Source of the DNA: Escherichia phage vB_EcoM_SA20RB
Length of the DNA stretch: 64,000 nt
Reading direction: 5' to 3' (one strand)
Sequence record: OL960581
Position numbers and translations under genes: made by a program. Shown here piece by piece: positions 4,279-63,189 of the stretch. Position 1 is the first letter of the stretch. Each line of letters begins with the position of its first letter. The notes below the pieces were generated by a model. The model had not been told where the DNA came from. It ran no database searches and was given only the letters and a program-made list of their open reading frames with translations.

Positions 4279-4327
4279 TTATCCTCGTTTGGTTTCGGGA
4301 ATATTATACTCCAATAATCATAAAGCT

Positions 4328-5865: not shown

Positions 5866-5945
5866 TTTCCATTTTATTCTCCAAGTTGTTTTCTGTATCA
5901 GTAGTTGATATTGATATAGTACCATAATCAACTACTGATGTATAT
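5866..5945 (-). repeat. orphan promoter-cassette relative with a perfect 13-bp hairpin and a 4-codon mini-ORF
   Basis: cattttattctccaa leader; ATCAGTAGTTGAT (5897-5909) pairs with ATCAACTACTGAT (5927-5939) around GGTACTATA. Confidence 0.6.
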
Positions 5946-15030: not shown

Positions 15031-15038
15031 TATTTATA
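15031..15038 (-). promoter_or_regulatory. late promoter TATAAATA for soc
   Basis: Exact TATAAATA on the minus strand about 30 nt upstream of the soc ATG. Confidence 0.75.
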
Positions 15039-15212
15039 TCAATCTTCAATGAAAACTTGTGCCAGGAATTCATGTTCATCTTTAATTTGTTTATATAAAG
15101 CCATTACAGCATTTATATTAGAGCTATCTACTTTAAGTTGATAAGCATACCACTCGTGTAAATTAATTAAAGCTTTTTGACGTCTAATAAATTCTTCTTT
15201 GGATATTTTCAT
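15039..15212 (-). CDS. hypothetical 57-aa protein (below track cutoff; soc.1/soc.2 slot)
   Basis: Hand translation MKISKEEFIRRQKALINLHEWYAYQLKV...; ATGA overlap with upstream ORF. Confidence 0.4.
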   Translation of the reverse strand: MKISKEEFIRRQKALINLHEWYAYQLKVDSSNINAVMALYKQIKDEHEFLAQVFIED

Positions 15213-15403
15213 TTTGAATGCTCTATAATTAATTTTAAAGCTTCTTCACTGACAAAAATTTCGTCATGACCTTCTGTAACTTCAACCATATGAAGCTGAT
15301 TAGTTAAGAGCTCACATACGAGCTCCTTGTTATAATCTTTAAATAGCTGGTCAATACGCTTCTTGCGGGCTTTCTTAAGCTGGCGCTTATTTAAACGAGC
15401 CAT
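15209..15403 (-). CDS. hypothetical small basic protein
   Basis: 64-aa ORF; overlaps the stop of gene 56. Confidence 0.45.
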   Translation of the reverse strand: MARLNKRQLKKARKKRIDQLFKDYNKELVCELLTNQLHMVEVTEGHDEIFVSEEALKLIIEHSK

Positions 15404-15955: not shown

Positions 15956-15979
15956 ATTATACAATAAATATATAAAGCA
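15956..15979 (-). promoter_or_regulatory. MotA-dependent middle promoter for gene 56
   Basis: Minus strand aTTGCTTTA, 11 nt, TATAAT. Confidence 0.7.
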
Positions 15980-15992
15980 ATAAGGAGGACAT

Positions 15993-16193: not shown

Positions 16194-17218
16194 ATCTTGG
16201 CATATTTAGATAGCCGCATTTTAGCCATTAACCCCTGGGCAATATTATTTTTCATATATTCCATAATTTGTTCAGGGGTTGCACCTTCCTTTCTAATCAT
16301 ATCATTGACATCTTTTGATTTCCAGGGAGATTTATCCCAAAACATAACCCTTTCTCCTGCATCAACTAATTTAGTCATTCGTTTGATAGTGTCAGGGTGA
16401 CGAGGTTCATTATCTAAAACCCACACTCGTCTATCTTTAAATGGAACAACTTCTAGGTCTAATTGACCGCCAGTAATGGCTATACCATTTTCAATAAAAA
16501 GTGAATCTATAGGTCCTTCTAGAACATATACATCACCATCTTTGACTCGTTCAACTCCATAGATTTTTGTTGCCTCAGGATAAGCTTTGATGGTGATATA
16601 TTTTTGAGGAGCATCTTTCTTTAATGCACGTCCTTGAAAAGACTCAGCTTTTCCATTAGCATTATAAATTGGAATAACAAGACGAGGCTCAGGTATTTCC
16701 TTTTTATATGTTCCTGGCGCTATACTGTTAACTAATTTAGGCCATTCAGTTGTAAACCAAAGATATTTCCATTTATCCTTTGGAATACAACGAGCTTTTA
16801 CATATTTTATAATTGGATGGTCTTCCGCCAGTTTATCTAATCTAATACATGACGGAAGAGATTTAATTATTTTCTTCTCAGGTTGTTTAGGAAGTTCTTT
16901 AGGTTTTTCTACTGGACGACTTTTACCTTTTTCTTTTCTTATTTCAAAGATATACTCACGATATAAATCAGGTTCAAACTCCTTTAAATATATTCCGATT
17001 GGTGCATGATAGTTGCAGTTATAACAATGAATATTTCCTTCATTATTATCGCCATAATACCATCCACGGGCTTTATTTTGATCGGTTTTTGAATCTCCAC
17101 AAACAGGGCATCTAAACCGTAATTTAAAAGTTGAACTATTATTTACTTGTGCGAATTTAGGCAAATGAGCTAATGCACGGTATGCAAACTCATTATCAAT
17201 CCAAGGTATTGATGACAT
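16190..17218 (-). CDS. 61: DNA primase
   Basis: 342 aa, the T4 gp61 length; zinc ribbon CPVCGDSKTDQNKARGWYY...CYNC; MSSIPWIDNEFAYRALAHLPKF. Confidence 0.95.
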   Translation of the reverse strand: MSSIPWIDNEFAYRALAHLPKFAQVNNSSTFKLRFRCPVCGDSKTDQNKARGWYYGDNNEGNIHCYNCNYHAPIGIYLKEFEPDLYREYIFEIRKEKGKSRPVEKPKELPKQPEKKIIKSLPSCIRLDKLAEDHPIIKYVKARCIPKDKWKYLWFTTEWPKLVNSIAPGTYKKEIPEPRLVIPIYNANGKAESFQGRALKKDAPQKYITIKAYPEATKIYGVERVKDGDVYVLEGPIDSLFIENGIAITGGQLDLEVVPFKDRRVWVLDNEPRHPDTIKRMTKLVDAGERVMFWDKSPWKSKDVNDMIRKEGATPEQIMEYMKNNIAQGLMAKMRLSKYAKI

Positions 17219-17220
17219 TT

Positions 17221-17385
17221 TTACTCTTCTTTTTCTTTAGATTCCTCTTTTTTCTTTTTAGGAATCTGTTCAGGACCTTTATTTACTACAGCACCTGACG
17301 TTGTTCCAGTAGAGATATTTTCAGGATTACCACCTGAATCTCCAGCTACCATATCTTCTTTAATAAATTCTTTAAACGTTTTCAT
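17221..17385 (-). CDS. 54-aa disordered peptide with capsid-targeting-like N-terminus (61.1 slot)
   Basis: Hand translation MKTFKEFIKEDMVAGDSGGNPENISTGTTSGAVVNKGPEQIPKKKKEESKEKEE; GAGG RBS; ends 2 nt before the primase ATG. Confidence 0.5.
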   Translation of the reverse strand: MKTFKEFIKEDMVAGDSGGNPENISTGTTSGAVVNKGPEQIPKKKKEESKEKEE

Positions 17386-17397
17386 ATTAGCCTCTAA

Positions 17398-17691
17398 TTA
17401 TTCACCTACCACTTCAGCGATGATATTTTTATTATTAAAGTTTTTATCGCAATACAGAACATAATTATACTGCATTACACCACCAGACTTAAGCTGTTTT
17501 TGCACTTCGGCTTTCATTTCAGGACGATCACGCTCAACGATATTCATAATATCCGCTTCAATTTGAGTTTCAACCTCAGTCTGATCTGCAGTCATAGACC
17601 ATTCACACAAATCTTTGTCATAACCCGCCATAGCAGGCTGAGCAGTACAAGAAGCCAAAGCAAAAATTGCAGCAAAAACAAATTTTTTCAT
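17398..17691 (-). CDS. sp: Spackle periplasmic superinfection-exclusion protein (inhibitor of gp5 lysozyme)
   Basis: 97 aa with signal peptide MKKFVFAAIFALASCTAQPAMAG; matches T4 sp (61.3) in size, slot and recalled sequence. Confidence 0.78.
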   Translation of the reverse strand: MKKFVFAAIFALASCTAQPAMAGYDKDLCEWSMTADQTEVETQIEADIMNIVERDRPEMKAEVQKQLKSGGVMQYNYVLYCDKNFNNKNIIAEVVGE

Positions 17692-17794
17692 GATAATCTC
17701 CTCAGTAGTTTATGTTTACAGTATCTCAATTTTCAACAAAAGTAAACACTAGTAGAAGTAAACAGACAAATTGCAATAATTGGTGATTTCAGTT

Positions 17795-17977
17795 TCATTC
17801 TTCTCCTCCTTCGTGTTGATGAACATATTCTTTTTCAAGTCTAGAGCACAAGTTTTCATATTCAACTAATAAAAATGAATCAAGTGCGTTATTTCTATGC
17901 TGACACCGTTCTTGTAAAGAATCCATCTCTGAACGTTGTTCTTGTGTTAATAATTGATAACCTGATACTTTAGACAT
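17795..17977 (-). CDS. hypothetical small acidic protein
   Basis: 60-aa ORF with its own early promoter upstream. Confidence 0.45.
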   Translation of the reverse strand: MSKVSGYQLLTQEQRSEMDSLQERCQHRNNALDSFLLVEYENLCSRLEKEYVHQHEGGEE

Positions 17978-18006
17978 TTTGTTCTCCGCGATTAGCTGAT
18001 AGAATT

Positions 18007-18036
18007 ACTATAACACAACTCTATCAGCTTGTAAAC
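18007..18036 (-). promoter_or_regulatory. early promoter embedded in a stem-loop
   Basis: GTTTAC, 18 nt, TATAGT; flanked by 9-bp inverted repeat AGCTGATAG/CTATCAGCT. Confidence 0.6.
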
Positions 18037-18038
18037 TA

Positions 18039-18281
18039 CTATTTTACTAGCATCAATAACTGTTTCTCTAACTTGACGATTTTACGAAAGTATCTTTTGC
18101 ATTGGCGAATCTGCCTCTTCGTAGGACGTACAACAAACTTAATAAATTCCACTCGACCAAATGGAGGACTTTCTTCTGCTGGAATATCTAACACCAATTC
18201 CCACGTATCTGCAATAAGTGCTTTGAATTGCGTATTTTTCCTGACTTTATACGGAGTAGGTTTAAATAAAACAATATGCAT
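18039..18281 (-). CDS. small basic protein in the 61.4 slot (possible TifA-like ToxN inhibitor)
   Basis: 80 aa from MHIVLFKPTPYK; ATG 1 nt after the dmd stop, preceded by GAGGA; assignment by position and size only. Confidence 0.4.
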   Translation of the reverse strand: MHIVLFKPTPYKVRKNTQFKALIADTWELVLDIPAEESPPFGRVEFIKFVVRPTKRQIRQCKRYFRKIVKLEKQLLMLVK

Positions 18282-19960: not shown

Positions 19961-20323
19961 TTAAAAGAATTTAAATTTTTTCTTTGACCTTTTATTAAAC
20001 GCATCTTGTAGTTGCATTGTAATACATTTTTCTACATGAGGAGCTAACTCAGCTTTTCTTTCTTGGTCAAGAACAGCAAAGTCCATTACGACTTTTCCAT
20101 CAACCCAATCTAATTTTGTCACATACACAATGTGTGTAGAACCATCTTCTAGTTTAATGACAATCTCCTGGATAACATTTTCCATGGCAGATTTAATTAT
20201 CTTAAGAGATTCATTAAAAAGACGTTCTTTTCTTTCTTCTTCCCCCTCCGAAGAGGGGGATTCATCGATAATTTCTAGATCTAAATCTAAATCATCTTTA
20301 TTCATTAAATTCTTCCATATCAC
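19961..20323 (-). CDS. 40: gp40 head-vertex assembly chaperone
   Basis: 120 aa between uvsX and 41, as in T4. Confidence 0.6.
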   Translation of the reverse strand: MIWKNLMNKDDLDLDLEIIDESPSSEGEEERKERLFNESLKIIKSAMENVIQEIVIKLEDGSTHIVYVTKLDWVDGKVVMDFAVLDQERKAELAPHVEKCITMQLQDAFNKRSKKKFKFF

Positions 20324-21479
20324 TTAACTGATCTAGGTCAGTTTCTAAATCAGCTGCTGATTTACTTTTACTTTCTGGAGATTTAAATTTTTCAACCTTT
20401 GAGTTAATCAATTCATCAACTTCAGCTTCAACAATTTCATTACTATCAATAGCACCTAACTGATAAGCATGTTTAATAGCATCTCGGAATGGTTGATGCT
20501 TAAATAAAGGACCCCAGAATGTAGTGCAGTTGGTATCTTTTGCACGCCAAGATTTTTCTTCGCGAATCATCTCGCCGGTTTCTTCGTCAAGAAATTCACG
20601 AGCATACCAGCCATTTTTAGGTTTTACCACAAATCCTAATTCAAGAGCCATATCTAACAATCCAGAATAAGGATCGATACCACCGTCAAATTTAACATCA
20701 ATAAAGAATTTACTTTTTTCTTTAACGGTACGAGATTTTTCTACATTTAGAACAAATTGATACCCCTGAAGATCAGAACCATCTTTAATCTGGCGCTTAC
20801 CGATAATGAATACAGTATCAGCCGAATACATTACGCCTGTACCACCTGTCATCACGGTTTTACTAAACATTTCAATTGTTTCAATTGTATGGTTAACCGC
20901 AACGCACGGAATGTTTTTAATACTAAAATAAGGAGTAACAATACGGAATAATGACTTCAGTGATTTAGCACGAGTCATATCTGCCACAGATTTTTCATTC
21001 AAGGCATCTTCCGTTTCTTTCTTAGAAGCCATATTACCGATTGAGTCGATGAATACAATAACCTTTTCACCACGCTCAATAGCTTCAAGCTGGTTCACCA
21101 TATCAATTTTCAGTTGTTCAACTGACTGAATTGGTGTATGAATTACTCGTTCCGGGTCAACTCCCATGGATCGCAAATAAGCAGGAGTAATACCAAATTC
21201 GCTATCATAGAATAGACAAACCGCGTCAGGATATTTGTTCAAATACGCCGCAACCATAGTCAAAGACATATTTGATTTAAAGTGTTTAGAAGGACCTGCA
21301 AAAATGGTTAAACCAGACTGCATACCACCATCAATCGCACCAGAAATAGCAATATTAAGCATTGGGATTTTTGTACGGATTACATCCTTTTCATTAAAGA
21401 ATTTAGATGTAGTCAGTTCAGCAGTCATTTTAGAAGTGGAAGCTTTAATCAAACGGGATTTTAAATCTGCAATAGACAT
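20298..21479 (-). CDS. uvsX: UvsX RecA-like recombinase
   Basis: 393 aa; GPSKHFKS Walker A; long identity with recalled T4 UvsX (…FFIDVKFDGGIDPYSGLLDMALELGFVVKPKNGWYAREF…). Confidence 0.95.
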   Translation of the reverse strand: MSIADLKSRLIKASTSKMTAELTTSKFFNEKDVIRTKIPMLNIAISGAIDGGMQSGLTIFAGPSKHFKSNMSLTMVAAYLNKYPDAVCLFYDSEFGITPAYLRSMGVDPERVIHTPIQSVEQLKIDMVNQLEAIERGEKVIVFIDSIGNMASKKETEDALNEKSVADMTRAKSLKSLFRIVTPYFSIKNIPCVAVNHTIETIEMFSKTVMTGGTGVMYSADTVFIIGKRQIKDGSDLQGYQFVLNVEKSRTVKEKSKFFIDVKFDGGIDPYSGLLDMALELGFVVKPKNGWYAREFLDEETGEMIREEKSWRAKDTNCTTFWGPLFKHQPFRDAIKHAYQLGAIDSNEIVEAEVDELINSKVEKFKSPESKSKSAADLETDLDQLSDMEEFNE

Positions 21480-21556
21480 TCATTTTTTCCATAGGCATCA
21501 TTATATTTTCCTCACTGGTTAAAGATAGAGTAATTATAACACAATAAATTTAGGCA

Positions 21557-22405
21557 TTAATCAACTGCTATCGGATGAATAGCATTAAACTTATGAAACG
21601 CTTCTGATTTTTCTTTGCGCGAAACACACATGCGAAGAACCTTTAATGGCTCGTCTTCTTCACCCAACGATTTTCTCTTTTCAATATTCGATGTTTTCCA
21701 ACGAGCTTGCTCTGGAAACTCTCTATTGATTTGCTCAAGAGCTCTATTATGTTTTGAATTACTACGAATTGAACTACATCCGCCAGGAGCTTGCGCTTTT
21801 CCGGATACAACCAGATATTTGAACAAGGCCAAATGCGGATAACCTTGATTAATTAAATTGAGAAATGCATACATATCTTCGCATAAATCAATTTTTCCAT
21901 ACCCAATTTGTTCTGTTGTAAGTTTCCCGAGGTCATACCAAGTATTCGTGAATCCATATGAATTTTCACGATAATTACCCCAAGATGAAGTAATTTTAAA
22001 AATAGGCAGACGAGCATGACCATGATAATACCCGCAATCCATGGCATCTTCAACGTATTGAATCAATTCATAGAACTGTTCACGAGTTAATTGATTAATT
22101 TTATCTACGCAGCGACGATCATCTTTCTTTCGCATTGAACTCATACGAATAGTAGTATCATCATCAATCATCCAAATTCGTTGACCTGCATACATATCAG
22201 TAATTGCTTTACGAGTACCAGCAATTCCATTAACATCATCAGGAATAGTTATAATTTTAGCTCTAGACCCGTAAGCGTCATAATAAGCTTTTTCTTCGTG
22301 TTCACGTACTACAATATGAGGTTCATAATCAGTCGGAAACATATCAAGGGCAGAAACTGCCCCGACACGCTGATAACTTGGAATTACGAATTGAATCATT
22401 TCCAC
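21557..22405 (-). CDS. GT-A-like glycosyltransferase in the beta-gt slot (likely beta-glucosyl-HMC-alpha-glucosyltransferase of T2/T6 type)
   Basis: 282 aa with an IWMIDDD acidic motif; lies between uvsX and 42, where T4 has segA plus the 351-aa beta-gt. Confidence 0.5.
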   Translation of the reverse strand: MEMIQFVIPSYQRVGAVSALDMFPTDYEPHIVVREHEEKAYYDAYGSRAKIITIPDDVNGIAGTRKAITDMYAGQRIWMIDDDTTIRMSSMRKKDDRRCVDKINQLTREQFYELIQYVEDAMDCGYYHGHARLPIFKITSSWGNYRENSYGFTNTWYDLGKLTTEQIGYGKIDLCEDMYAFLNLINQGYPHLALFKYLVVSGKAQAPGGCSSIRSNSKHNRALEQINREFPEQARWKTSNIEKRKSLGEEDEPLKVLRMCVSRKEKSEAFHKFNAIHPIAVD

Positions 22406-23136
22406 TCACCTTTATAATCTTTTTTCACAATATGAGTTTCGCCAGTATTCCACCAATGATCAACCAAGTAAAAATGACGAAAATATACATGAAGACTTCC
22501 AACATTCCATATAATAGAACCTGCTTTATACTGACGAGTTGAATCGCCTGCATTCAAGTCAGATACTAATTTATCTAGTACGTATTTTTGCCATGCATAA
22601 TCATTACGGAATCCGAAGACCACGTCATTTGAACGCATGCTTACTACTGCATTGACTTTCTTATCACGAATCAGGTACTGCACTGTATTAGTACACATGA
22701 AATCTGACATACCATCTTTATTGTAGTCAAACTGCATGGATGGACGAGTATAAATCATGATACCACGCCGAGAATCAGGATTTTGACCAAGTTCAGCTAA
22801 ACACATATCATACTGGGCATAGTTATCTTCTGACCAGATGGCCCAACCATAATTCGAGTTAATTTCGCCTTTAGAAGATGCTACCTGCTGCCAAATCTTT
22901 GGTGTTTCACCCGGAATATCTTTAACAAACAAACTTTTAGATTTATACCATTCAAGTTCACGTTGAATGTATTCATCATTAAGAGCGCCAAAAATAAACG
23001 GTTCATCTGCTACAAATGATGCACCAATAATTTCAATAGTTTTAACACCAGTTTTATCAACTACGAAATCTTTTTCTTTTAATGCAAGCCCCAAATGAAG
23101 ACGGATTTCTTCAACTGTCATAGAGTCACTAATCAT
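22396..23136 (-). CDS. 42: dCMP hydroxymethylase
   Basis: 246 aa, the T4 gp42 length; thymidylate-synthase-like sequence. Confidence 0.92.
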   Translation of the reverse strand: MISDSMTVEEIRLHLGLALKEKDFVVDKTGVKTIEIIGASFVADEPFIFGALNDEYIQRELEWYKSKSLFVKDIPGETPKIWQQVASSKGEINSNYGWAIWSEDNYAQYDMCLAELGQNPDSRRGIMIYTRPSMQFDYNKDGMSDFMCTNTVQYLIRDKKVNAVVSMRSNDVVFGFRNDYAWQKYVLDKLVSDLNAGDSTRQYKAGSIIWNVGSLHVYFRHFYLVDHWWNTGETHIVKKDYKGEWK

Positions 23137-23548: not shown

Positions 23549-23929
23549 TCACTTAGTCAAATTTTTTACACATGAATTATAAGAATTCACTACATACTCC
23601 ATCGGAGCATTTTTACCTGTACGCCATTGGTAATTATTAGCCCAATTAGCCCAAATTTCGGCGCAGTAGTTTTCAATTTTTTCTTCGCGTGTAATTACAT
23701 CCGAATTACGATATGCTTGAGCAGATTCGTCTGGACGAATAGCTTCGTCAAAATTCGCCTGCATTTGTTCTACTGTCTGTTTTGGAGCCTCTTTATAACA
23801 CTTGACGTTAGGATTATAAAATTTGCTTGAACAGTTTACAATTTTTCCTGCATCAGACTGATTTACTACCGGTCCTTGAGCTACACAGCCAGTAAGACCC
23901 AATGTAATAACCAAAATAGCAATTTTCAT
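23549..23929 (-). CDS. putative lipoprotein
   Basis: 126 aa; MKIAILVITLGLTGC lipobox. Confidence 0.55.
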   Translation of the reverse strand: MKIAILVITLGLTGCVAQGPVVNQSDAGKIVNCSSKFYNPNVKCYKEAPKQTVEQMQANFDEAIRPDESAQAYRNSDVITREEKIENYCAEIWANWANNYQWRTGKNAPMEYVVNSYNSCVKNLTK

Positions 23930-23939
23930 AATAATTTCC

Positions 23940-24197
23940 TCAAATACAAGTAGTAATTACTCCAGTAGTGCTTACACAGGTATTACCTAATTGAACACCA
24001 AGCGTTCCATTAGTATTCATATGAAGATTATCATCAATTTTTGTTGATACTTTACCATTCATGTGAATAACAGTATTAGATTCAATCACATTCTGAGTGT
24101 CATTTTCAATATCAATAAATGGAACAGCTGCTAATGCAACTAGAACAACTGCTAATGCAACTAAACACGCTGCTAAACAACCATAAACAATTTTCAT
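23940..24197 (-). CDS. single-pass membrane protein
   Basis: Trimmed to MKIVYGCLAACLVALAVVLVALAAV because the promoter cassette 24191-24280 lies inside the track ORF extension. Confidence 0.5.
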   Translation of the reverse strand: MKIVYGCLAACLVALAVVLVALAAVPFIDIENDTQNVIESNTVIHMNGKVSTKIDDNLHMNTNGTLGVQLGNTCVSTTGVITTCI

Positions 24198-24280
24198 TTT
24201 ATTCTCCAAATCCGTATCAGTTGATAGTTGTATAGTACCATGGAAGAACAGAGATGTAAACCGTTTTGTGAAAAAATTTT
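24191..24280 (-). repeat. early-promoter/leader cassette, copy 1 (50 nt + 25 nt identical to copy 2, 15-nt spacer swapped)
   Basis: ttttcattttattctccaaatccgtatcagttgatagttgtatagtacca [15 nt] gtaaaccgttttgtgaaaaaatttt. Confidence 0.85.
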
Positions 24281-24344
24281 TAATGAATTTACAGGACCTA
24301 GAATCATCTATTTTTCCTAAGTATAGATTTATATTACTTGTATG

Positions 24345-24366
24345 AAAAAGGGACCCGGAGGTCCCT
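24345..24366 (-). terminator. rho-independent terminator after gene 43
   Basis: GGGACC-UCCG-GGUCCC followed by a U5 run. Confidence 0.75.
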
Positions 24367-24378
24367 AGATTTATTCTA

Positions 24379-27075
24379 TCAGCCAAACAGGAAGTCTAAC
24401 GAAGCTTTTTCCTCATAGTCCATACCTGCCGATTCACACATACCCGCAAGTGGTTTAACAAACGATTTTTGGAACAAAGTTGAGTAGTCAATCCAAGACA
24501 GTACGTCAGAACGAATTTCTTTTGGAAGTTCTGTGCCTGATGGCCAAGCAATGCACTTGTCACCAAATGGATTTCCTTCACGTAATGGAAGAACCATTAC
24601 CTTATTTCCATCCAAAATTGGAGCTACACCTAAACCACTAACAGCTCGACGATAAGTTAGTACGCCACGAATATGGAACGGGCATTTAAATCCTGGCCAA
24701 CCTTTATCATCATATTTCGCTATATCGTTCGCAGTTTTTACTTCAGCAATAACTTTATAGTCAAGTTGACGATATTCTTTCTCAAAGTTCTTGTAGTATT
24801 CTTGGACAGACTCTTCACCTTCCTGAAGAATACGACGAATACTTTCTTCGAGAGCTTCTTGTACTGCTTTTGGTGTTGAACTCTGTTGAGTTTCCATACC
24901 CATAATTTTTAGATGCGGTTCGGCAAATCGCTTATCTTCCATATCATAAACGTTCAGAGCATAACGTTTTTTCGCTTTCCAAAATCCACCAACACCCTTT
25001 GAACCAAGCGGAGGGCAAGAAATAGCTTCACGGTCCATATGCATCAGATGCTCGCGGTTATTCATATAGTCACATAACTCACGATATGCAACATCAATCA
25101 TAGGTTCCATCTTTTTCTTACCAAACTGATTCATGAATTCAACTAAATCATTTTGTTCTTTAAAGCGATCAAGACCTACTTTTTCAATAACTTTATCTAC
25201 ACAAACATATACCGAATCAGTATCACCTGCTGCGATGAAATCTTCACCATTAGTTCCACATACTTTATTCAGATATTCATTAATTTTGCGAGCAATCCAC
25301 TGAATACCGACTTGACCGAAAATTGTGATAGCAGTAGCATTTCGCAAATCATAGTAACGGAAATGAATATTACCAAGAGCACCATAAAGACTGTTAATAA
25401 GAATTTTACGGTTCAGCTGATTTGTGTTAGCAAGTGTAGCTGCTTTTTCACATTCTTCGATCAGACTATTAAGAACAGATTCGGTGTAATTCGATAATTC
25501 GTTTAAGAAATCATCACTGAACTTAACATATCGTTCAACTTCTGGTTTAGTTGAACAAGACCCTGCACCTTTCATAATAATCTTTTTAATAGCTTCGGCA
25601 TTCATTTCTTCAGCGAACATTTTCTTTTTCCAATCTTTACGCTGGAAAAATACTTTAGCGATTTCCTTTGGAATGATACCTTCTTGGTGCTTATCATACA
25701 TCCATCCATTCGGAGAGCAAGAATATTCATCACTTGGCTTAGGAGCTGTTCCTGCGATATATTCATGAATTGGATGAACTTTAAACTGCCCACGAATAGT
25801 CTCAGGACTAATGTTAACCTGACGAATAATGCTAGGATACAGAGACGTCAAGTCAAAACTCATAATGTATCGACGAGCAATCGGTTTAGGTTCAAACACA
25901 AATGCACCTGGAAAACTCTGTTTAACGTGTGAACCTTGTTGAGGAATAACCTTATGTTCACCTTTCAGTGAGTTAAAAATAATAGCATCCCAAGTTTTAA
26001 TAGGACTCATTACACCAGAAAAAGGCATTTTAGCGTAATAAGACATACTTAAAACTAGATCGATAAACCCACGAATTTTATCAATTGCTTGAACTGATTC
26101 TACGTCAATGATGTTATAACTAATGTATCGTTGATGATTAGTCTCACGAAGTTTATTAATAGGACCATCGTACGGTAATTTACCTTTTTTGGTTTCATGT
26201 TGAGCAACTGATTCCAAAGAGAACGATGGCAAATTAGTAAATGCGAATTTCTTGTACAAATCTAAATAATCAAGAATAGATACGCCATCAATAGAATAAA
26301 TTTCTTTGCTACCGTACATATTTTGAATTAGTTTAGATTTTACCCGACCGATTGGAGAGAAGCGTTTCATACTGCGTTCACCGAGAACCATTTTAACACG
26401 GTTCATGATATACGGAACGTCAAATCCCTCAATATTCCAACCGGTAAAAATAGCAGGTCGTTTCTGTTCCCAGAGATTAATATATTCCATGAGCATATCA
26501 CGCTCATTATCAAATGGCATATAAATTACTCGGTCAAGAATTTCTTGAGGAACTTCATCACCACCTTCACAGTCAAGCTTAGCAGCTAACTTTGCATCCC
26601 ATTTTGATACTGAACCGTACATTGAATTCAACAAATCAAAGACGTAAAAACGATCGTCAATTGAATCATAATGAGTGATAGCATCAATTTCATATTCTGC
26701 TTTCATTGGGTCAGGAAATTTATCACCAGTAACCTCAATGTCACAGTTAGCTACACGAACAAATTTTCGGTCATAAACAATTTCTGAACCATATGTATCA
26801 CTGATATAAGCGAGTTTAAAATCGTTCATACCGAGAGCTTCGAGACCGATGTCTTCCATTCGCTTCATCCAGTCTCGTGCATCTTTCATTGATGGAAATT
26901 TTTGAGGAGCACAATTTTTACCATAAATGTCTTTGTATTTTGACTCTTCCTTACAATGCCTAAACATAGTCGGAAGATATTCTACTTCACGAGTACGTTC
27001 CTTTCCGTTTTCATCAATATAACGCTCAACAATATTATTTCCGACTGTTTCGATAGAGATATAAAATTCTTTCAT
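24379..27075 (-). CDS. 43: DNA polymerase (family B)
   Basis: 898 aa, the T4 gp43 length; MKEFYISIETVGNNIVERYIDENGKERTREVEYLPTMF; DTDS polymerase motif. Confidence 0.97.
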   Translation of the reverse strand: MKEFYISIETVGNNIVERYIDENGKERTREVEYLPTMFRHCKEESKYKDIYGKNCAPQKFPSMKDARDWMKRMEDIGLEALGMNDFKLAYISDTYGSEIVYDRKFVRVANCDIEVTGDKFPDPMKAEYEIDAITHYDSIDDRFYVFDLLNSMYGSVSKWDAKLAAKLDCEGGDEVPQEILDRVIYMPFDNERDMLMEYINLWEQKRPAIFTGWNIEGFDVPYIMNRVKMVLGERSMKRFSPIGRVKSKLIQNMYGSKEIYSIDGVSILDYLDLYKKFAFTNLPSFSLESVAQHETKKGKLPYDGPINKLRETNHQRYISYNIIDVESVQAIDKIRGFIDLVLSMSYYAKMPFSGVMSPIKTWDAIIFNSLKGEHKVIPQQGSHVKQSFPGAFVFEPKPIARRYIMSFDLTSLYPSIIRQVNISPETIRGQFKVHPIHEYIAGTAPKPSDEYSCSPNGWMYDKHQEGIIPKEIAKVFFQRKDWKKKMFAEEMNAEAIKKIIMKGAGSCSTKPEVERYVKFSDDFLNELSNYTESVLNSLIEECEKAATLANTNQLNRKILINSLYGALGNIHFRYYDLRNATAITIFGQVGIQWIARKINEYLNKVCGTNGEDFIAAGDTDSVYVCVDKVIEKVGLDRFKEQNDLVEFMNQFGKKKMEPMIDVAYRELCDYMNNREHLMHMDREAISCPPLGSKGVGGFWKAKKRYALNVYDMEDKRFAEPHLKIMGMETQQSSTPKAVQEALEESIRRILQEGEESVQEYYKNFEKEYRQLDYKVIAEVKTANDIAKYDDKGWPGFKCPFHIRGVLTYRRAVSGLGVAPILDGNKVMVLPLREGNPFGDKCIAWPSGTELPKEIRSDVLSWIDYSTLFQKSFVKPLAGMCESAGMDYEEKASLDFLFG

Positions 27076-29048: not shown

Positions 29049-29080
29049 AATTTCCTCATTCAAGTTTTAGTGTAAATTAT

Positions 29081-29098
29081 AAAGGGCCGAAGCCCTTT
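29081..29098 (-). terminator. UUCG-tetraloop hairpin after gene 45
   Basis: AAAGGGC-UUCG-GCCCUUU. Confidence 0.65.
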
Positions 29099-29099
29099 A

Positions 29100-29786
29100 T
29101 TAAAAGTCGTGGGTAGAATCAGCTTCAAGAGCTACTACATAATTCGCATGTTCACCTTCAAATTTAGCAGCGCCTTGTTTACCTTTTGCCCAGAGCAGAA
29201 GTTTATAATTTCCTGGTTGCATTTTCATATTTGCCATATTGATAATGAAATTAAATGTATTTTCACCATCATAATCACCAAGAGTCAAAGAATATTTAAC
29301 ACGGGTCAAAGCAGAATCTTCTACTTTATTAAAACCGTTAATTACGATTTTACCTTCTTTTACTGTGATAGCAATTGTATCAATCTGCAGACCGCGAGAT
29401 ACACGCAACAGCTGTTGAAGGTCTTCAGCTTTAATTTCGGTAACAACAGATGCTACCGGGAATGGAATTGGTTTATTAGGAGCAACTACTGTACTCGGAT
29501 CGGCTGCTGGCCAAAAAATTGTTGAACGGGCATCAGCAATTTTAATATTTCCATCTTCTGACTGGGAAATTTCTGCATCATCATTAACTAGAGACAGAAT
29601 ACCGAGAAAACCGTTCAAATCGTAAATCGCTACATCAAAATCAATAGTGTCAGAAATATTTGCTTCCGCATAAGTTGTACCATTAACTGCGCGAGTCATA
29701 ATAAATTGACCAGATTTAAGCATAATACCAGAGTTAATAGTAGCGAAATTTTTGAGCAGAGCAGTAGTATCTTTAGACAGTTTCAT
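29100..29786 (-). CDS. 45: sliding clamp
   Basis: 228 aa; MKLSKDTTALLKNFATINSGIMLKSGQFIMTRAVNGTTYAEANISD. Confidence 0.95.
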   Translation of the reverse strand: MKLSKDTTALLKNFATINSGIMLKSGQFIMTRAVNGTTYAEANISDTIDFDVAIYDLNGFLGILSLVNDDAEISQSEDGNIKIADARSTIFWPAADPSTVVAPNKPIPFPVASVVTEIKAEDLQQLLRVSRGLQIDTIAITVKEGKIVINGFNKVEDSALTRVKYSLTLGDYDGENTFNFIINMANMKMQPGNYKLLLWAKGKQGAAKFEGEHANYVVALEADSTHDF

Positions 29787-34368: not shown

Positions 34369-34391
34369 TATATCAAACTCCGTATAAAGCT

Positions 34392-34409
34392 AAAGGGCCG
34401 AAGCCCTTT
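34392..34409 (-). terminator. UUCG-tetraloop hairpin at the alpha-gt stop
   Basis: AAAGGGC-UUCG-GCCCUUU overlapping the stop codon. Confidence 0.65.
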
Positions 34410-35610
34410 ATTTTGTAATAATGTCAAACTGTTCTTTAAAGCAGAAGCTTGAATCTTGATGCTGATACAAAAATTCATAAGCTTTTTCGCGTTCACGGTC
34501 ATAAAGAGCTCGGTCAGATGACAGTTCTTTAATACGTTCAAATGTTGATTCCATGTCATTTTCATCAAACCAAACGATACCGCTATCATGAGAAATTAAC
34601 GGAGTATTATCAACACGGAATTTTAAATTTTCGCCAGTAGATTTCCAAAATACTGGAATTGTTCCACATGCACCAAGCTCGAGATGAGTATATTCTAAAG
34701 AACGTTGTAGATATTTTTTGTCCAACTTACTCAGCTGATAACCAAATCCGGATTTACTCATGCGCTCAAGCATTTCGCTATTTACATAACGGTCAAGAAT
34801 TTGCGTTGGCAAATTAGGAGCAATTTTAATTTGGTCTACTTGATGAAGACGATAATACTCGTATGGAATTCCTTTTTCTTTAATAGGAATGAACGCAGGA
34901 GAACGTTCCAGACCTTCCATAATAGTACTTAGCCCAGCAGGTTTAAGATGTTTTTCGTGAAAATCAAACATCTGATAAAAACCTTTCCATGTAGTCGTAC
35001 GACCAATCCAACGGTTGACATTCATGTTAATTTCAGAAACATCTTTCCAGTAGGTTGATCGAACCTTCGCAATATCCATAGGAGGCTGAAAGTTGTATAC
35101 AGTCGGTGCTTCTTCAATATCATCAAACAGAGAAACTGTTTCTGGATACCATTCTTTCATCAAAACTTTATTAAAATCACCATTATCAGAATGACTAAAA
35201 ATAACATCAGCTCGACGAACAGTTTCTTCTAATCCCAAATTTCGGCGCAAAGAAAGAGAAGAATGGTCATGTTGATAAACTACAACACGAACTGAAGGTT
35301 TAATGTTATCAATAATTTTTTTATAGTTATTAATAGTGTCTTCTTCGACTGAAGTAGCAGGAACTGAATTGATAATTAGAATATCACAATCATTTACCAG
35401 CTTAAGTGTTTTATCGTATTCTTTTGCCAATAAAACCGGAATTGAAAATGATTTATAATCATGCGCGCAATTACGAGTAAATGATTTATCTTTAGCATAA
35501 ACCAAAGTTACTTCATGACCATTTTTAATAAACCAATCACGCTGCTCGAGAGAAAATTTAGTTACGCCGCAACCTTCAAGACCTCGAGCCATAAAAATAC
35601 ATACTTTCAT
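34408..35610 (-). CDS. a-gt: alpha-glucosyltransferase (HMC-DNA)
   Basis: 400 aa, the T4 alpha-gt length; MKVCIFMARGLEGCGVTKFSLEQRDWFIKNGHEVTLVY. Confidence 0.88.
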   Translation of the reverse strand: MKVCIFMARGLEGCGVTKFSLEQRDWFIKNGHEVTLVYAKDKSFTRNCAHDYKSFSIPVLLAKEYDKTLKLVNDCDILIINSVPATSVEEDTINNYKKIIDNIKPSVRVVVYQHDHSSLSLRRNLGLEETVRRADVIFSHSDNGDFNKVLMKEWYPETVSLFDDIEEAPTVYNFQPPMDIAKVRSTYWKDVSEINMNVNRWIGRTTTWKGFYQMFDFHEKHLKPAGLSTIMEGLERSPAFIPIKEKGIPYEYYRLHQVDQIKIAPNLPTQILDRYVNSEMLERMSKSGFGYQLSKLDKKYLQRSLEYTHLELGACGTIPVFWKSTGENLKFRVDNTPLISHDSGIVWFDENDMESTFERIKELSSDRALYDREREKAYEFLYQHQDSSFCFKEQFDIITK

Positions 35611-35634
35611 TTAATATCCTCATTGTTTTGGTTT

Positions 35635-40121: not shown

Positions 40122-40950
40122 TTATATATTTCCAATTATAGCCTTCAACACTTTTACGTTCGCCATTTAAACATTTTAAAATATTTCCTTTGCTAGAAAT
40201 ATTAAAATATTTTGCTGCGTCTGGTATATAATTAAATGTTTTTAAAAGAACACCATCTTTATATGCGCCAAATAAATTAAGAGTATATTTTTCTCGAAGA
40301 CGCTGATGTTTCCTTTTCATAACCTCAGGATTTGCATACGCCAACCTCAATGAATTTCTATGTTTTTCTTTTACTTCAGGTTTTTGCATTGCTAACTTAG
40401 TTAGCCTGGAAATTTTATTTCTAACTTCGTCAGTTTTCATTGCATTTGACAAATTTAATAAAGTTTTATTTCTAACTTCAGGTTTTTGCATTGCTAACTT
40501 AGTTAGTTCTCTATGTCTTTTTCTAAAATCGTCATCCTTCCATATATTTTTCGATAATTTTGACATAGAGCGGTGAAATAATTCCTTTTCACTGGAATAC
40601 AATTTAAAAATTTCATCCAATTCATCCGCATTAAATCTATCGGTATTCGAGTTTATCATTCTATGAAAGGCATAACACATTTTACTATTGCTTGTTTTAG
40701 CTAAATAGTAATGAGCTAACGCATGGTCATAATATGACAAATTAACAATATTCCATTTATCTGTTTTATATTCAGGAAATATAGATTTGGGAAGCACGTG
40801 ATGTGCTTCCGTTTTTCCTTTTATTTTAGGATTATTATAATTTTTTGTTATCAAATCAACATATGACAATAGTAAATCATTATTTTCTTCAAATATTAAA
40901 GCTAATTTATCATTCACAAAATCGCAAGGATAAAATCTATCGTAATTCAT
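40111..40950 (-). CDS. free-standing HNH homing endonuclease (mobC slot)
   Basis: 279 aa; HNH motif AHHVLPKS...NIVNLSYYDHALAH; repeated ..LTKLAMQKPEV(R/K).K NUMOD-like modules; lies between nrdD and nrdG. Confidence 0.82.
   Translation of the reverse strand: MNYDRFYPCDFVNDKLALIFEENNDLLLSYVDLITKNYNNPKIKGKTEAHHVLPKSIFPEYKTDKWNIVNLSYYDHALAHYYLAKTSNSKMCYAFHRMINSNTDRFNADELDEIFKLYSSEKELFHRSMSKLSKNIWKDDDFRKRHRELTKLAMQKPEVRNKTLLNLSNAMKTDEVRNKISRLTKLAMQKPEVKEKHRNSLRLAYANPEVMKRKHQRLREKYTLNLFGAYKDGVLLKTFNYIPDAAKYFNISSKGNILKCLNGERKSVEGYNWKYINEL
40373..40506 (-). repeat. 32-nt perfect direct repeat inside the HNH gene (copies 40373-40404 and 40475-40506)
   Basis: acttcaggtttttgcattgctaacttagttag occurs twice, 102 nt apart, encoding LTKLAMQKPEV twice. 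Confidence 0.85.
40909..40950 (-). repeat. diverged duplicate of the nrdG 5' end (compare 40080-40121)
   Basis: ATGAATTACGATAGATTTTATCCTTGCGATTTTGTGAATGAT versus ATGAATTATGACAGAATATACCCATGCTGCTTTGTTAATGGT. Confidence 0.75.
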
Positions 40951-48270: not shown

Positions 48271-48300
48271 ATTATACCACATCCTTGTGGCAAAGTAAAC
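48271..48300 (-). promoter_or_regulatory. early promoter with spacer hairpin; 32-nt near-copy of 2429-2460
   Basis: attataccacatccttgtgg(c/t)aaagtaaacta is shared with the rIIA.1 promoter, one mismatch. Confidence 0.7.
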
Positions 48301-49328
48301 TAGTTCAGTGCATTTAGTGCATTGTTCAGTTTAGAACGTTGCTTCGTGAGATTTTTGACTTTTTCTTGAGCTTTTTCTAGCATCTTTTCAGCTTCTAACA
48401 CTTCATTAGTTGCTTTAACGAGTTCATCATCTACTGCCTTGATAGACTTCTCAATCGCATCCGCGTGCCATTTTTCAACAGGTTTAAGACTCGGATTTTC
48501 AACAGGAAGAAAATTCGCTTTATTGAATTTCCATGCATCCTTATTACCTGAACTATACATCCAAAATTTAGGATCGTTTGATGAGTAATTGGATAAATTT
48601 AAATTTAAGTTATCTTGCACTTCTTGCTTTTTCTCTTGCGTGACTTCGTCCTTTCTCAAAAAATCGTATTTAAATGAAATGATCATATCAAGTTCATATG
48701 TTGTTGTGTCTAATTTAAATCGTTCGAAATGCTGTGAAATCTTAGACTGAACAGCAGCAACAACGTCCATATACTTAAATGCTTCTGTCAACTGTGATTT
48801 AAGGCATTCGCAAATTGAAAGAGAATTTTTTGTATTAGGTTTAAAGCTAATTCGTGCAGTTCTGTTATTTTCTTTTAATGGTCTTACTTCCATCTGAAGA
48901 GTATAACCATCAAATTTCAGATTCTTTAAGTTAATATCAGAACCTTTTAATCGACTCGCAGTTGATAAAATTTGCTTTAATTGTCTACGGAACAGAGCAA
49001 TAAATCTCCATTCAATACGATAATGATTTGGATTGAAAAATCCAGATGATAAATCGACCTTACTTTGACCAACGCCTTGAACAAATAGAGGATTTTTATA
49101 ATCGATAGTTTTACAGAAATCGGTGAGCTGCTCACGAGCCGTCATTTGTGTAATATAACCCGCTTTACTAAAATTACGCACCCATTCACTGCTATTCGTA
49201 TACTTAAAGTGATGAATAACACGATTAACTTTATCAGGGTCTAAATTATTTTCACACAAAAATGTCATAACATCACGAGTATAACTGGCATTACGAACCA
49301 TATCTTCAATTTGAGAACGAGTTTTCAT
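48300..49328 (-). CDS. coiled-coil-tailed family member C
   Basis: 342 aa; motifs FRRQLKQILSTASRL and KYMDVVA; tail ...LEAEKMLEKAQEKVKNLTKQRSKLNNALNALN. Confidence 0.6.
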   Translation of the reverse strand: MKTRSQIEDMVRNASYTRDVMTFLCENNLDPDKVNRVIHHFKYTNSSEWVRNFSKAGYITQMTAREQLTDFCKTIDYKNPLFVQGVGQSKVDLSSGFFNPNHYRIEWRFIALFRRQLKQILSTASRLKGSDINLKNLKFDGYTLQMEVRPLKENNRTARISFKPNTKNSLSICECLKSQLTEAFKYMDVVAAVQSKISQHFERFKLDTTTYELDMIISFKYDFLRKDEVTQEKKQEVQDNLNLNLSNYSSNDPKFWMYSSGNKDAWKFNKANFLPVENPSLKPVEKWHADAIEKSIKAVDDELVKATNEVLEAEKMLEKAQEKVKNLTKQRSKLNNALNALN

Positions 49329-51225: not shown

Positions 51226-51251
51226 TTTGTGTTCCTCCGTAGTTGATAGTT

Positions 51252-51283
51252 GTATAGTACCACAGAGGAACAGTCTTGTAAAC
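51252..51283 (-). promoter_or_regulatory. early promoter cassette (shares agttgatagttgtatagtacca with 24219.. and 52680..)
   Basis: GTTTAC...TACTATAC plus the shared leader. Confidence 0.6.
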
Positions 51284-51285
51284 CA

Positions 51286-51600
51286 CTAAAAGAAACTTCT
51301 TTCACAATTTTTTCCACTGAACCAGGCGCTCACTGCTTTCTTAGTCTCAGGAGCAGTGTTATCCATAAACCATTCAAAGGCAGCCTTTTTATGATTCTGG
51401 AGGGCTTCTCGGGCTTTAATCTGCTCACGGTCTATTAACACTAACATATGAGCCTTTCTTGTCACCATGGGCTTCTTATGATTTTTTGAATACTCCCAGT
51501 CATTTGTCCATCGCATTGTCGTTGCGAACTGAAATACTGCTTCTTTAATTTTAGTTTCGTAAATTTCACGAGCCTTTGAGTATAACATCATTACCTCCAT
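51286..51600 (-). CDS. hypothetical protein
   Basis: 104-aa ORF. Confidence 0.45.
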   Translation of the reverse strand: MEVMMLYSKAREIYETKIKEAVFQFATTMRWTNDWEYSKNHKKPMVTRKAHMLVLIDREQIKAREALQNHKKAAFEWFMDNTAPETKKAVSAWFSGKNCERSFF

Positions 51601-51689: not shown

Positions 51690-52658
51690 TTATTTCAGAA
51701 GAGTAACCTCAGCAATTTCTTCCCAACCGTTTTTGTCGGTCATAATAAAGTCAGCAAGATAAAGAGCAGTACGCAGTGAAACATTGCGTAAACGGTTAAC
51801 ATTAACTTTCATCCATGATAATGCTTTATAAGTTTCTTCATCAGAAAGACCGCGCTTTTGCATCATGTCAGTTGAAAGAATAACATCTTCAACCCTGACC
51901 ATAATTTCTTCATTAGTATGAACACCCAAATCCAAATAAACCGAGCGGGACACTAATGCTTGTAAATGTGGAGCAAGTTTAGTACCACGGTCTAATTCGC
52001 GGTCAATGTCAACGTTTGTGATAAAAACAATCGTTCCTTTAAATTCAAACTCACGCTCAATGCCTTTTTCTTCTAAGTAAGAAGACGCAGTGCTCCAGCA
52101 GACTTTACGGGTCTCTCCGGTGTCCAGAGCGGCTTTTAGAAGATTAAGAATGTCCATATCAGAGAAAACATCCACATCATCAATCAAAAGGACAGAATTC
52201 TCTTCACGATTATTCCAAAGCTGCTCATAAAGACCAATACCAGAGATTTTACCATTAATGCTTTTATATTCAATGTATCCAATATCATTTGCTTTATTTA
52301 AAGCTTTATCTAAAGAATACGTTTTACCAATACCTGCTGCACCAGAGATAATCAATGAACGAATATTTCCATTAATAATACCATTCGTCATCATTCCCAT
52401 AACATTAAATCTTTTATTAATGCGGGTTTTCATATCTTCATACGATTCTTTAACTTCTTCAACCTTTACACCATCATATGAAATATCTGATTTGTAAACC
52501 CAAACACCGCGACGTTTACCGTCAATTTCAACAAAAACTTTACCATCTCCTTGTGCATCTACCGGAGCATTATCTGGGAACCATTCGCCTAAGAGCTCAA
52601 AAGTTCCAGAGATTTCTTTACCGAAGTAGATACCCTTATTGATAGTTACAGTTTTCAT
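51690..52658 (-). CDS. AAA-type ATPase (nrdC.10 slot)
   Basis: 322 aa from MKTVTINKG; Walker A GAAGIGKT; Walker B VLLIDDVD. Confidence 0.7.
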   Translation of the reverse strand: MKTVTINKGIYFGKEISGTFELLGEWFPDNAPVDAQGDGKVFVEIDGKRRGVWVYKSDISYDGVKVEEVKESYEDMKTRINKRFNVMGMMTNGIINGNIRSLIISGAAGIGKTYSLDKALNKANDIGYIEYKSINGKISGIGLYEQLWNNREENSVLLIDDVDVFSDMDILNLLKAALDTGETRKVCWSTASSYLEEKGIEREFEFKGTIVFITNVDIDRELDRGTKLAPHLQALVSRSVYLDLGVHTNEEIMVRVEDVILSTDMMQKRGLSDEETYKALSWMKVNVNRLRNVSLRTALYLADFIMTDKNGWEEIAEVTLLK

Positions 52659-52741
52659 TTTATTCTCCAAATCCGTATCAGTTGATAGTTGTATAGTACC
52701 ATAAAGCTTTATGCTTGTAAACCGTTTTGTGAAAAAATTTT
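52652..52741 (-). repeat. early-promoter/leader cassette, copy 2
   Basis: Same 50-nt and 25-nt blocks as 24191-24280, upstream of the AAA ATPase gene. Confidence 0.85.
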
Positions 52742-52752
52742 GAAATAAAAAA

Positions 52753-52770
52753 GGGAGCCCGAAGGCTCCC
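52753..52770 (-). terminator. rho-independent terminator after the nucleotidyltransferase gene
   Basis: GGGAGCC-UUCG-GGCUCCC followed by U6. Confidence 0.8.
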
Positions 52771-52772
52771 TA

Positions 52773-53783: not shown

Positions 53784-54226
53784 TTAACATCCTTAAATTC
53801 TATCATAGGGCAGATTTTAGATTTACTAGCTTTAAGGTATTCAACGATTACACTATTAGGATGTTCAATACCGTTTTCTTCGTCTTGTTGACGCTTCCAC
53901 GCTCTATCATACCTGACTCCTTCCCATAAACCTGAAATCTTAGCTACAATATATGCTATACCTACTGCAATAACGACAATCGTAGCAAATATCAGTACAC
54001 CAAATACGGTTCCGCCTGCGTGTAGAAGCCAGAATCCTGTAACACCAAATTGACTTAAAATAGCTTGTCCTACCACCCAACTACCTAATAGCCCCGATGT
54101 GCAAATAACACCGATAACTAAGAACGTCCACGCCATTTTCCAGAAATATTTACACAAAGAATTCGGACGCTGCCAGTAAAAGAAATCATGCATACGAACG
54201 TGCCAAGAGTTTTCATTAATAATCAT
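53780..54226 (-). CDS. polytopic membrane protein
   Basis: 148 aa, 3-4 hydrophobic helices. Confidence 0.5.
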   Translation of the reverse strand: MIINENSWHVRMHDFFYWQRPNSLCKYFWKMAWTFLVIGVICTSGLLGSWVVGQAILSQFGVTGFWLLHAGGTVFGVLIFATIVVIAVGIAYIVAKISGLWEGVRYDRAWKRQQDEENGIEHPNSVIVEYLKASKSKICPMIEFKDVK

Positions 54227-54228
54227 AA

Positions 54229-56233: not shown

Positions 56234-56259
56234 GATGTTCTCCTCTTTATCTGATGGTT

Positions 56260-56291
56260 GTATAGTATCACAGCTCAAATGGAAAGTAAAC
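56260..56291 (-). promoter_or_regulatory. early promoter cassette (diverged copy of the 24191/52652 family)
   Basis: GTTTAC...gaTACTATACAacc. Confidence 0.55.
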
Positions 56292-60460: not shown

Positions 60461-60490
60461 ATTATACCACAGTCAAGAGGAAAAGTAAAC
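60461..60490 (-). promoter_or_regulatory. early promoter upstream of regB
   Basis: GTTTAC, 18 nt, TATAAT. Confidence 0.65.
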
Positions 60491-63159: not shown

Positions 63160-63189
63160 ATACTATCACAGTTTTAGGAGAAAGTAAAC
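63160..63189 (-). promoter_or_regulatory. early promoter embedded in a stem-loop, upstream of the internal protein gene
   Basis: GTTTAC, 18 nt, TAGTAT; 8-bp inverted repeat AACTGTGA/TCACAGTT around the -10. Confidence 0.6.

Follow-up and report, generated by a model that had tools for sequence, protein, structure and literature searches.

Two near-identical promoter cassettes

The window examined here, a stretch of 64,000 nucleotides from Escherichia phage vB_EcoM_SA20RB (OL960581), raises the question of how one phage genome comes to hold two promoter and leader cassettes that are nearly identical, lie about 28 kb apart, and differ in the short spacer between their -35 and -10 elements. Megablast identified the window as belonging to a Tequatrovirus (T4-like phage); identity to sequenced isolates reached 99%, and every gene of the window lies on the minus strand. 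Direct reading of both regions bore out the near-identity that a first, sequence-only reading had noticed. The block containing the leader and -10 covers 55 nt with a single mismatch (24187-24241 vs. 52648-52702; A vs. G at 24190); the 50 nt first reported (24191-24240) are exact, and the identity runs one base further, to 24241. The second block is equally real but measures 26 nt rather than the 25 nt claimed (24255-24280 = 52716-52741). Across the flanks of the two copies, all 81 positions are identical except 24190. The spacer had been described as 15 nt that are completely different; its core is indeed unrelated, with only 2 chance matches, but this core comprises 13 nt (24242-24254 vs. 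52703-52715), the first and last T being common to both copies.

A repeat search of the window recovered the pair as repeat families D2, D7, D10, and D16, plus weaker relatives at 51.2, 5.9, and 56.3 kb. The 20-mer GGTACTATACAACTATCAAC had three exact matches and one with three mismatches in the window, where 0.00 were expected (100 shuffles). Together with a splitting of the cassettes into modules, these searches identified the diverged copies proposed at 51241-51283, 56250-56291, and 5866-5945 as genuine family members. We dropped the explanation that the duplication arose through faulty assembly or a chimera, a concern already voiced with the first reading and now almost inconceivable: the T4 reference (NC_000866) and hundreds of independently sequenced genomes hold both cassettes at the same two loci, and the family is present in 542 independent phage records.

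Anatomy of the two cassettes

Copy 1 lies on the minus strand between gene 43 (24379-27075) and imm.1 (23549-23929), and is the orthologue of the T4 promoter between these genes. Its features, and those of the open reading frame behind it, are as follows.

24349..24366, minus strand: intrinsic terminator hairpin after gene 43, AGGGACC-TCCG-GGTCCCT plus a T run (terminator scan)
24255..24283, minus strand: left block, with an A/T-rich UP-like tract, CACAAAACG, and the -35 (GTTTACA) (sequence, promoter scan)
24255-24260, minus strand: -35 hexamer TTTACA (promoter scan)
24242..24254, minus strand: variable spacer core, sense TCTCTGTTCTTCC, spacer type S1
24232..24241, minus strand: extended -10, A-TGG-TACTAT (TGn 24238-24240, hexamer 24232-24237)
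24208..24231, minus strand: initial transcribed region and leader, ACAACTATCAACTGATACGGATTT
24195..24207, minus strand: SD and start codon, GGAGAATAAAATG, with a perfect RegB/S1 strong-site consensus at 24197-24207 and the start codon at 24195-24197
23940..24197, minus strand: ORF85, a small protein of 85 aa with a hydrophobic N-terminus (PHROG 4189, E = 3.5e-31)

The terminator hairpin of copy 1 sits approximately 65 nt upstream of its UP region and is also present in T4, T6, and wV7. Copy 2, also on the minus strand, is flanked by the homologues of T4 nrdC.11 (52773-53783) and nrdC.10 (51690-52658), and matches T4 base for base across the entire intergenic region.

52752..52771, minus strand: terminator hairpin after the nrdC.11 homologue, AGGGAGCC-TTCG-GGCTCCCT plus T6 (terminator scan), identical in T4
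52716..52744, minus strand: left block, UP-like tract and -35 (hexamer 52716-52721)
52703..52715, minus strand: variable spacer core, sense AGCATAAAGCTTT, spacer type S2, also found at T4 32>frd.3
52693..52702, minus strand: extended -10, TGG-TACTAT (hexamer 52693-52698)
52656..52692, minus strand: leader, RegB/S1-consensus SD (52658-52668), and start codon of the nrdC.10 homologue (52656-52658)

The hairpin of copy 2 (8 bp, GC-rich, followed by T6) is located directly upstream of the UP region. Its spacer forms part of a perfect 14-nt palindrome, CATAAAGCTTTATG (52700-52713, minus strand), that runs into the TGn and is kept at two loci per genome in approximately 490 records.

Both copies present the same order of elements: a terminator, an A/T-rich tract, CACAAAACG, GTTTACA, 17 nt, TGg-TACTAT, the leader ACAACTATCAACTGATACGGATTT, the SD GGAGAATAAA, and ATGAAAA. 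The conserved blocks had been read as promoter, leader, and ribosome binding site, and the promoter scan supports this assignment (-35 TTTACA, 17-nt spacer, TGg-TACTAT, and start codon). In a consensus scan, both copies gave TTTACA-17-TACTAT preceded by TG, and both terminators were called as well. Each leader is approximately 35 nt long and is followed by GGAGAATAAAATG (52656-52668 in copy 2). Some GenBank records carry a 'promoter' annotation at these sites. Judging from the position of the -10, the transcription start of copy 1 would lie near 24225.

T4 early promoters combine excellent -35, TGn, -10, and UP elements and have been termed 'uber' promoters (Hinton 2010, PMC2988021); unmodified host sigma-70 RNA polymerase recognises these elements (PMC2988021). 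A sequence scan found all four at both copies, with the 17-nt spacing, and there is no material difference from the T4 early promoter (Pe) class. The PeSL cassettes of T4 and PST comprise an AT-rich region, a promoter of the form TTTACW-N17-TAYWAT, an SD with ATG at the 3' end, and a stem-loop (Comeau 2014, PMC4122927). Like PeSLs (Arbiol 2010, PMC2839356; Comeau 2014), both copies have an AT-rich upstream region, with AAAAATTTTTTCACAAAAC directly before the -35 GTTTAC, a promoter of this form, and at their 3' ends an SD with a downstream start codon in GGAGAATAAAATG.

The leader also contains a candidate processing site. Strong cleavage sites for RegB/S1 in T4 early mRNAs follow the consensus GG*AGRAYARAA (Durand et al. 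2006, reviewed in PMC3014915), which GGAGAATAAAA matches at 11/11 positions in both copies. Like the known strong sites (PMC3014915), which lie in intergenic translation-initiation regions of early mRNAs, it occupies the SD position of an early gene and is unpaired in the predicted own-promoter transcript, which makes both copies candidate sites on sequence grounds. There are four perfect GGAGRAYARAA sites in the window versus 0.43 expected, and each is the SD of an early-promoter cassette leader.

5872-5882, minus strand: RegB/S1 consensus site
17977-17987, minus strand: RegB/S1 consensus site
24197-24207, minus strand: RegB/S1 consensus site, copy 1
52658-52668, minus strand: RegB/S1 consensus site, copy 2

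For transcripts that would start at the cassettes' own promoters, folding predicts no structure and an accessible SD (SD pairing probability ~0.1). When we asked whether the leader is a known or structured RNA, Rfam returned only sub-threshold noise and the fold z-scores of the two copies were not significant.

In sigma-70 promoters, the stretch between the -35 hexamer and the TGn is the only part without base-specific polymerase contacts. The variable 13 nt coincide exactly with this stretch, and the conserved blocks coincide with the published RNA polymerase contact elements and the RegB/S1 consensus. Such a correspondence with the UP, -35, TGn, -10, and RegB/SD elements is what independent convergence would predict, with every conserved base needed for maximal promoter, ribosome binding, or RegB function. 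However, the -10, initial-transcribed, and leader sequences of other strong early promoters in the window are different, the 24 nt of the mid-leader (ACAACTATCAACTGATACGGATTT) are identical in both copies despite having no known recognition role, and the identity reaches into the first codons (ATGAAAA). Convergence is therefore highly improbable. Conservation of the mid-leader is explained by common descent, to which selection may also contribute. Homology of the two downstream proteins was considered as well and none was found; they belong to different PHROGs and the identity ends after ATGAAAA.

A cassette family with recurring modules

Copies 1 and 2 are very probably paralogous members of a Tequatrovirus family of early-promoter/leader cassettes, the PeSLs. 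The 97-nt cassette was found at 3,273 places in 542 phage records, or about 6-8 per genome. With up to four mismatches allowed, a pattern scan of IMG/VR and the T4 reference found the core TGGTACTATACAACTATCAAC at no fewer than 11 T4 loci, and the IMG/VR contigs hold at least seven locus types of the cassette.

T4 family loci: motB>cef, 43>imm.1, nrdC.9>nrdC.8, nrdC.11>nrdC.10, >mobD.5, >denV, >e.8, 32>frd.3, >motA, >ndd.4, denB>ndd.6
51226..51300, minus strand: family member C (nrdC.9>nrdC.8), sharing the -35 and the TGGTACTATACAACTATCAAC core, with a spacer of the S1 type and a leader of its own
5866..5945, minus strand: diverged member motB>cef, RegB-consensus SD at 5872-5882
56250..56291, minus strand: diverged member upstream of the mobD.5 homologue (repeat search, module split)

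Comparison of these loci shows that upstream regions, spacers, and leaders occur in different combinations. The full leader of both copies (L1) follows a different, unrelated spacer at each of three loci: imm.1, nrdC.10, and ndd.6. Conversely, the spacer of copy 2, AAGCATAAAGCTTTA (S2), occurs with two leaders, at nrdC.10 and 32>frd.3; together with its -35 and -10 blocks it forms a 58-nt promoter unit that is identical at T4 32>frd.3, in front of another leader and gene. The spacer type of copy 1, AAGACTGTTCTTCCA and variants, is homologous to the T4 imm.1, e.8, ndd.4, and nrdC.8 spacers, the last three having other leaders. The upstream block of copy 2 (U1: terminator T-tract, UP, and -35) is found with S2 and, at motA, with spacer S4, and the 26-mer 24255-24280 of copy 1 is also present in the T4 nrdC.10, motA, and frd.3 promoters.

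The family has at least six spacer types, each kept at its own loci (2-3 per genome) across approximately 500 genomes. Probes spanning the spacers located S2 at 980 places in 494 records (~2 per genome) and S1 at 1,331 places in 530 records (2-3 per genome). These counts, of about 2-3 places per genome in some 500 records, indicate that the spacers are old, stable, and specific to sub-families. Contrary to what had first been supposed, the replaced spacer is not unusual. Nor was there a clean swap of 15 nt, since the copy 2 spacer moves with its -35 and -10 as the 58-nt unit. Because spacers recur with different leaders, the units are mosaic modules, and the apparent swap would be the junction of two promoter sub-families that have a leader in common. 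What holds from the first proposal is modular exchange inside the promoter, supported by the varied combinations in which upstream, spacer, and leader modules occur at 11 or more T4 loci. Recombination would be the source of this mosaicism, judging from the arrangement of the modules.

A promoter pair elsewhere in the window, at 2458 and 48300 (2429-2460 and 48271-48302), 46 kb apart, shows the converse of the copy 1/copy 2 pattern: 31/32 positions are identical over the -35, spacer, and -10, and the leaders differ. Its spacer holds a hairpin, CCACA-AGGA-TGTGG, and its 10-mer ACCACAAGGA is also present in the spacer of the T4 ndd.6 promoter.

We also considered whether a recent gene conversion event in this phage made the flanks of copy 1 match those of copy 2 and halted at the heterologous spacer, a form of concerted evolution as opposed to old modular descent. 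The 81 flanking positions that agree everywhere except 24190 in the window would fit such an event, as would T4, where copies 1 and 2 differ by a t/g substitution immediately before the -35 GTTTAC, an indel of one ACT unit in the leader, and a g/a substitution ahead of the ATG. The same three small changes separate copy 1 of T4 from copy 1 of the window. However, among relatives each of these differences is polymorphic on its own at both loci, in various combinations, and the indel is a one-unit slip of the tandem ACTACT. At most three small characters need explaining and no conversion tract is required, and we consider gene conversion unlikely.

In the paralogous-family explanation, each copy would be a strong sigma-70 early promoter with UP, -35, TGn, and -10 elements, preceded by an intrinsic terminator hairpin and followed by a short unstructured 5' leader, an SD that doubles as a consensus RegB/S1 site, and the start codon of a non-essential early gene. 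Host RNA polymerase would fire these promoters immediately after infection, as expected of the Pe class, whose transcription does not depend on phage protein synthesis, and the mRNA would be translated from the open SD and then probably inactivated by a RegB cut within GG^AG. Promoter activity, transcription start, and RegB cleavage are thus predicted for both cassettes from their sequences. The conserved blocks would be the functional parts and, at the same time, the short homologies at which the T4 recombination system joins cassettes. The 13-15 nt difference would exist because the copies fall in different spacer sub-families, copy 1 in S1 and copy 2 in S2. Copy 2 would be a mosaic of the promoter module of 32>frd.3 and the leader module of imm.1 and ndd.6, and copy 1 a mosaic of an nrdC.8/ndd.4/e.8-type spacer and the same leader as copy 2.

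Pairing between spacers and leaders

Among the 16 promoters of the form GTTTAC-N17-TAnnnT in the window, 7 have a spacer complementary to their own leader, with dG of -10 to -22 kcal/mol. A permutation of native versus swapped pairs over these 16 promoters gave p = 5e-5. The hairpins enclose the -10 and several cover the SD, as at 60490, 51283, and 7640; their arm sequences differ among promoters.

-35 G at 63189, 60490, 55479, 51283, 18524, 18036, and 7640 (also 5945), minus strand: promoters with a self-complementary spacer, 13-17 bp

In member C, the spacer GUUCCUCUG pairs with the SD CGGAGGAAC in a hairpin enclosing the -10 (fold z = -4.14). In the cef member, the spacer ATCAGTAGTTGAT is exactly complementary to the leader segment ATCAACTACTGAT, a conserved block of the family that provides the 3' arm of a hairpin likewise enclosing the -10 (fold z = -4.31). 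Stem-loops of PeSLs are found mostly between the -35 and -10, or overlapping the latter, and function as terminators or attenuators (Arbiol 2010, PMC2839356). The spacer-leader hairpins of the window correspond to this published 'SL' component. Sequestering of the SD by these hairpins, which would silence read-through RNA, may be under-described.

Copies 1 and 2 do not show this pairing. The spacer-leader duplex of copy 1 (-8.7 kcal/mol) was equalled by 33% of shuffles and that of copy 2 (-2.4 kcal/mol) was no better than shuffled sequence, and the folds of the read-through transcripts were unremarkable (z = +0.34 and -1.09, respectively). On these duplex energies and z-scores, we rejected a role for the spacer as an anti-SD or hairpin arm in the two copies.

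These data bear on a further alternative, in which the spacers are locus-specific functional elements (the 5' arm of a stem-loop attenuating or silencing read-through transcripts, for example, or a protein-binding palindrome) and the difference between the copies is selected rather than neutral. The 7/16 promoters with self-complementary spacers (p = 5e-5), the folding of members C and cef at z of about -4, the typical position of PeSL stem-loops between the -35 and -10 or over the -10 (Arbiol 2010, PMC2839356), and the perfect 14-nt palindrome around the copy 2 spacer that recurs at two loci per genome all speak for it. However, in the two copies in question the duplexes (-8.7 kcal/mol, 33% of shuffles, and -2.4 kcal/mol) stay at the shuffled level and the read-through folds are likewise at z = +0.34 and -1.09, and as RNA the palindrome CATAAAGCTTTATG gives only a 5-bp A/U-rich stem. 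Functional, selected spacers appear distinctly unlikely for this pair.

Since the spacer of copy 1 is homologous to that of member C, which pairs with the SD of its own leader, copy 1 looks like an S1 promoter to which a foreign leader was attached within the shared -10/initial-transcribed block. Within the family explanation, one possible history has two parts. Tequatrovirus early promoters would be built from three or more modules that reassort independently (terminator/UP/-35, spacer, and leader), joined at three short, functionally conserved blocks: UP/-35, TGn/-10/initial transcribed region, and RegB-SD-ATG. In its ancestral form, the spacer would have supplied the 5' arm of a hairpin around the -10, one silencing or attenuating read-through RNA; this hairpin would have been kept in nrdC.8 and cef and lost in copies 1 and 2 through replacement of the leader or the spacer. 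We offer the two parts together as a plausible but tentative proposal, somewhat short of probable. If the modular part is true, functional constraint itself supplies the micro-homologies for gene shuffling.

Gene content at the cassettes

The cassettes had been linked to PeSL-mediated gene shuffling, and the two loci themselves fit the published model, as both copies are points of ORF insertion in some relatives; a window-wide association was not statistically detectable in the comparison with T4. At copy 1, ORF85 is absent from T4 and T6, whose cassette abuts imm.1 directly, and compared with the T4 Pe locus the cassette here would drive this additional 85-aa ORF ahead of imm.1. ORF85 is inserted exactly at the start codon, with the junction within ATGAAAAT, the opening of both ORF85 and imm.1, and it was found at one place in ~325 of ~540 records. 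At the copy 2 site, one or two ORFs with a second early promoter are inserted in LR746311 and MN895438: Shigella phage vB_SsoM_113 has two extra ORFs there and phage teqdroes has one, and in each case a second early promoter follows. Either the UP/-35 block or a repeated ...GGAGAATAAAATGAAAAC borders the copy 2 inserts. Insertions in relatives fall exactly at copies 1 and 2, with the conserved blocks as borders.

Two observations concern the copy 1 locus in other phages. Relative to phage wV7, 21 nt are duplicated in tandem and in frame within the hydrophobic N-terminal segment of ORF85 (LVALAVV LVALAAV; window 24100-24160). In T6 (AP018814.1, 24507-24546), a 40-nt misc_feature 'attL' covers the -10 and leader of the imm.1 cassette; the label would seem to come from an automated att-site caller, set on the same direct repeat. 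The label had looked like evidence for a mobile element, a reading that we rejected.

Across the whole window, 2 of the 18 indel or replacement events relative to T4 have a boundary in an early-promoter cassette, and enrichment was not detectable (permutation p = 0.33). These two are 17748-18058, bounded by two cassettes, and 23929-24190. The former is a 309-nt insertion relative to T4 (20110-20146) with cassettes on both sides (-35 at 18036 and 17747), a textbook case of an ORF insertion flanked by PeSLs. The four pure insertions that have no promoter at their ends lie in translationally coupled contexts, and T4 homing-endonuclease genes (seg, mob) coincide with many of the other events.

21467-22414; 35601-35626; 40143-40930; 53784-54732; 15038-15403: differences between the window and T4 at T4 homing-endonuclease genes

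T4 segA (with beta-gt), mobB, mobC, mobD, and segF are absent from the window or replaced by unrelated sequence; at the position of mobD, the window has a 148-aa ORF with a hydrophobic segment (53780-54226). The region of the T4 dam methyltransferase (16825-17725, ~900 nt) has no counterpart at window 15961-15982.

The 28.5 kb between copies 1 and 2 contain genes 43, regA, 62, 44, 45, 46, 47, and 55 and the nrd genes. The first reading had seen the copies as potential substrates for large deletions or duplications. A deletion between the copies would be lethal, and a duplication of these 28.5 kb should exceed the headful capacity of T4; no such rearrangement surfaced incidentally in the searches made.

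Relation to known systems

The cassette pair is real but ordinary; the PeSL family is already known, is present in T4 itself, and has been proposed as a driver of accessory-gene shuffling in T4-like phages. In addition to the promoter features described above, the cassettes resemble PeSLs in being intergenic, in having many repeats per genome and a terminator-type stem-loop upstream, in the insertion of ORFs at cassettes in some close relatives, and in what appear to be chimeric forms. However, copy 1 has no stem-loop next to or within the promoter, its terminator lying ~65 nt upstream rather than adjacent or overlapping, and it fits the 'SL' part of the definition only loosely. Also unlike PeSLs, both copies sit beside core replication and nucleotide-metabolism genes (43 and the nrdC cluster) and not in the densest hyperplastic regions. 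Published PeSLs recombine with one another to give chimeric PeSLs and mini-circles (Arbiol 2010; Comeau 2014); in the present family, the mosaic spread of modules would be an indirect sign of such exchange.

The main value of the analysis is correct annotation, as the early promoters of the ORF in the imm.1 region and of nrdC.10, and the finding opens no new question. It adds modestly to what is known in three respects: a clear case of modularity inside a promoter (one leader with three spacers, one spacer with two leaders), a shared leader that ends in a perfect RegB/S1 site, and natural spacer variants in otherwise identical cassettes, which offer a ready test of the effect of the spacer on a very strong promoter.

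Other hairpins in the window

Two identical 22-nt terminator-like hairpins, TAAAGGGCCGAAGCCCTTTATT, are located 5.3 kb apart at 29080-29101 and 34391-34412, and copies with 82% identity to them occur at 4327, 27133, and 38030.
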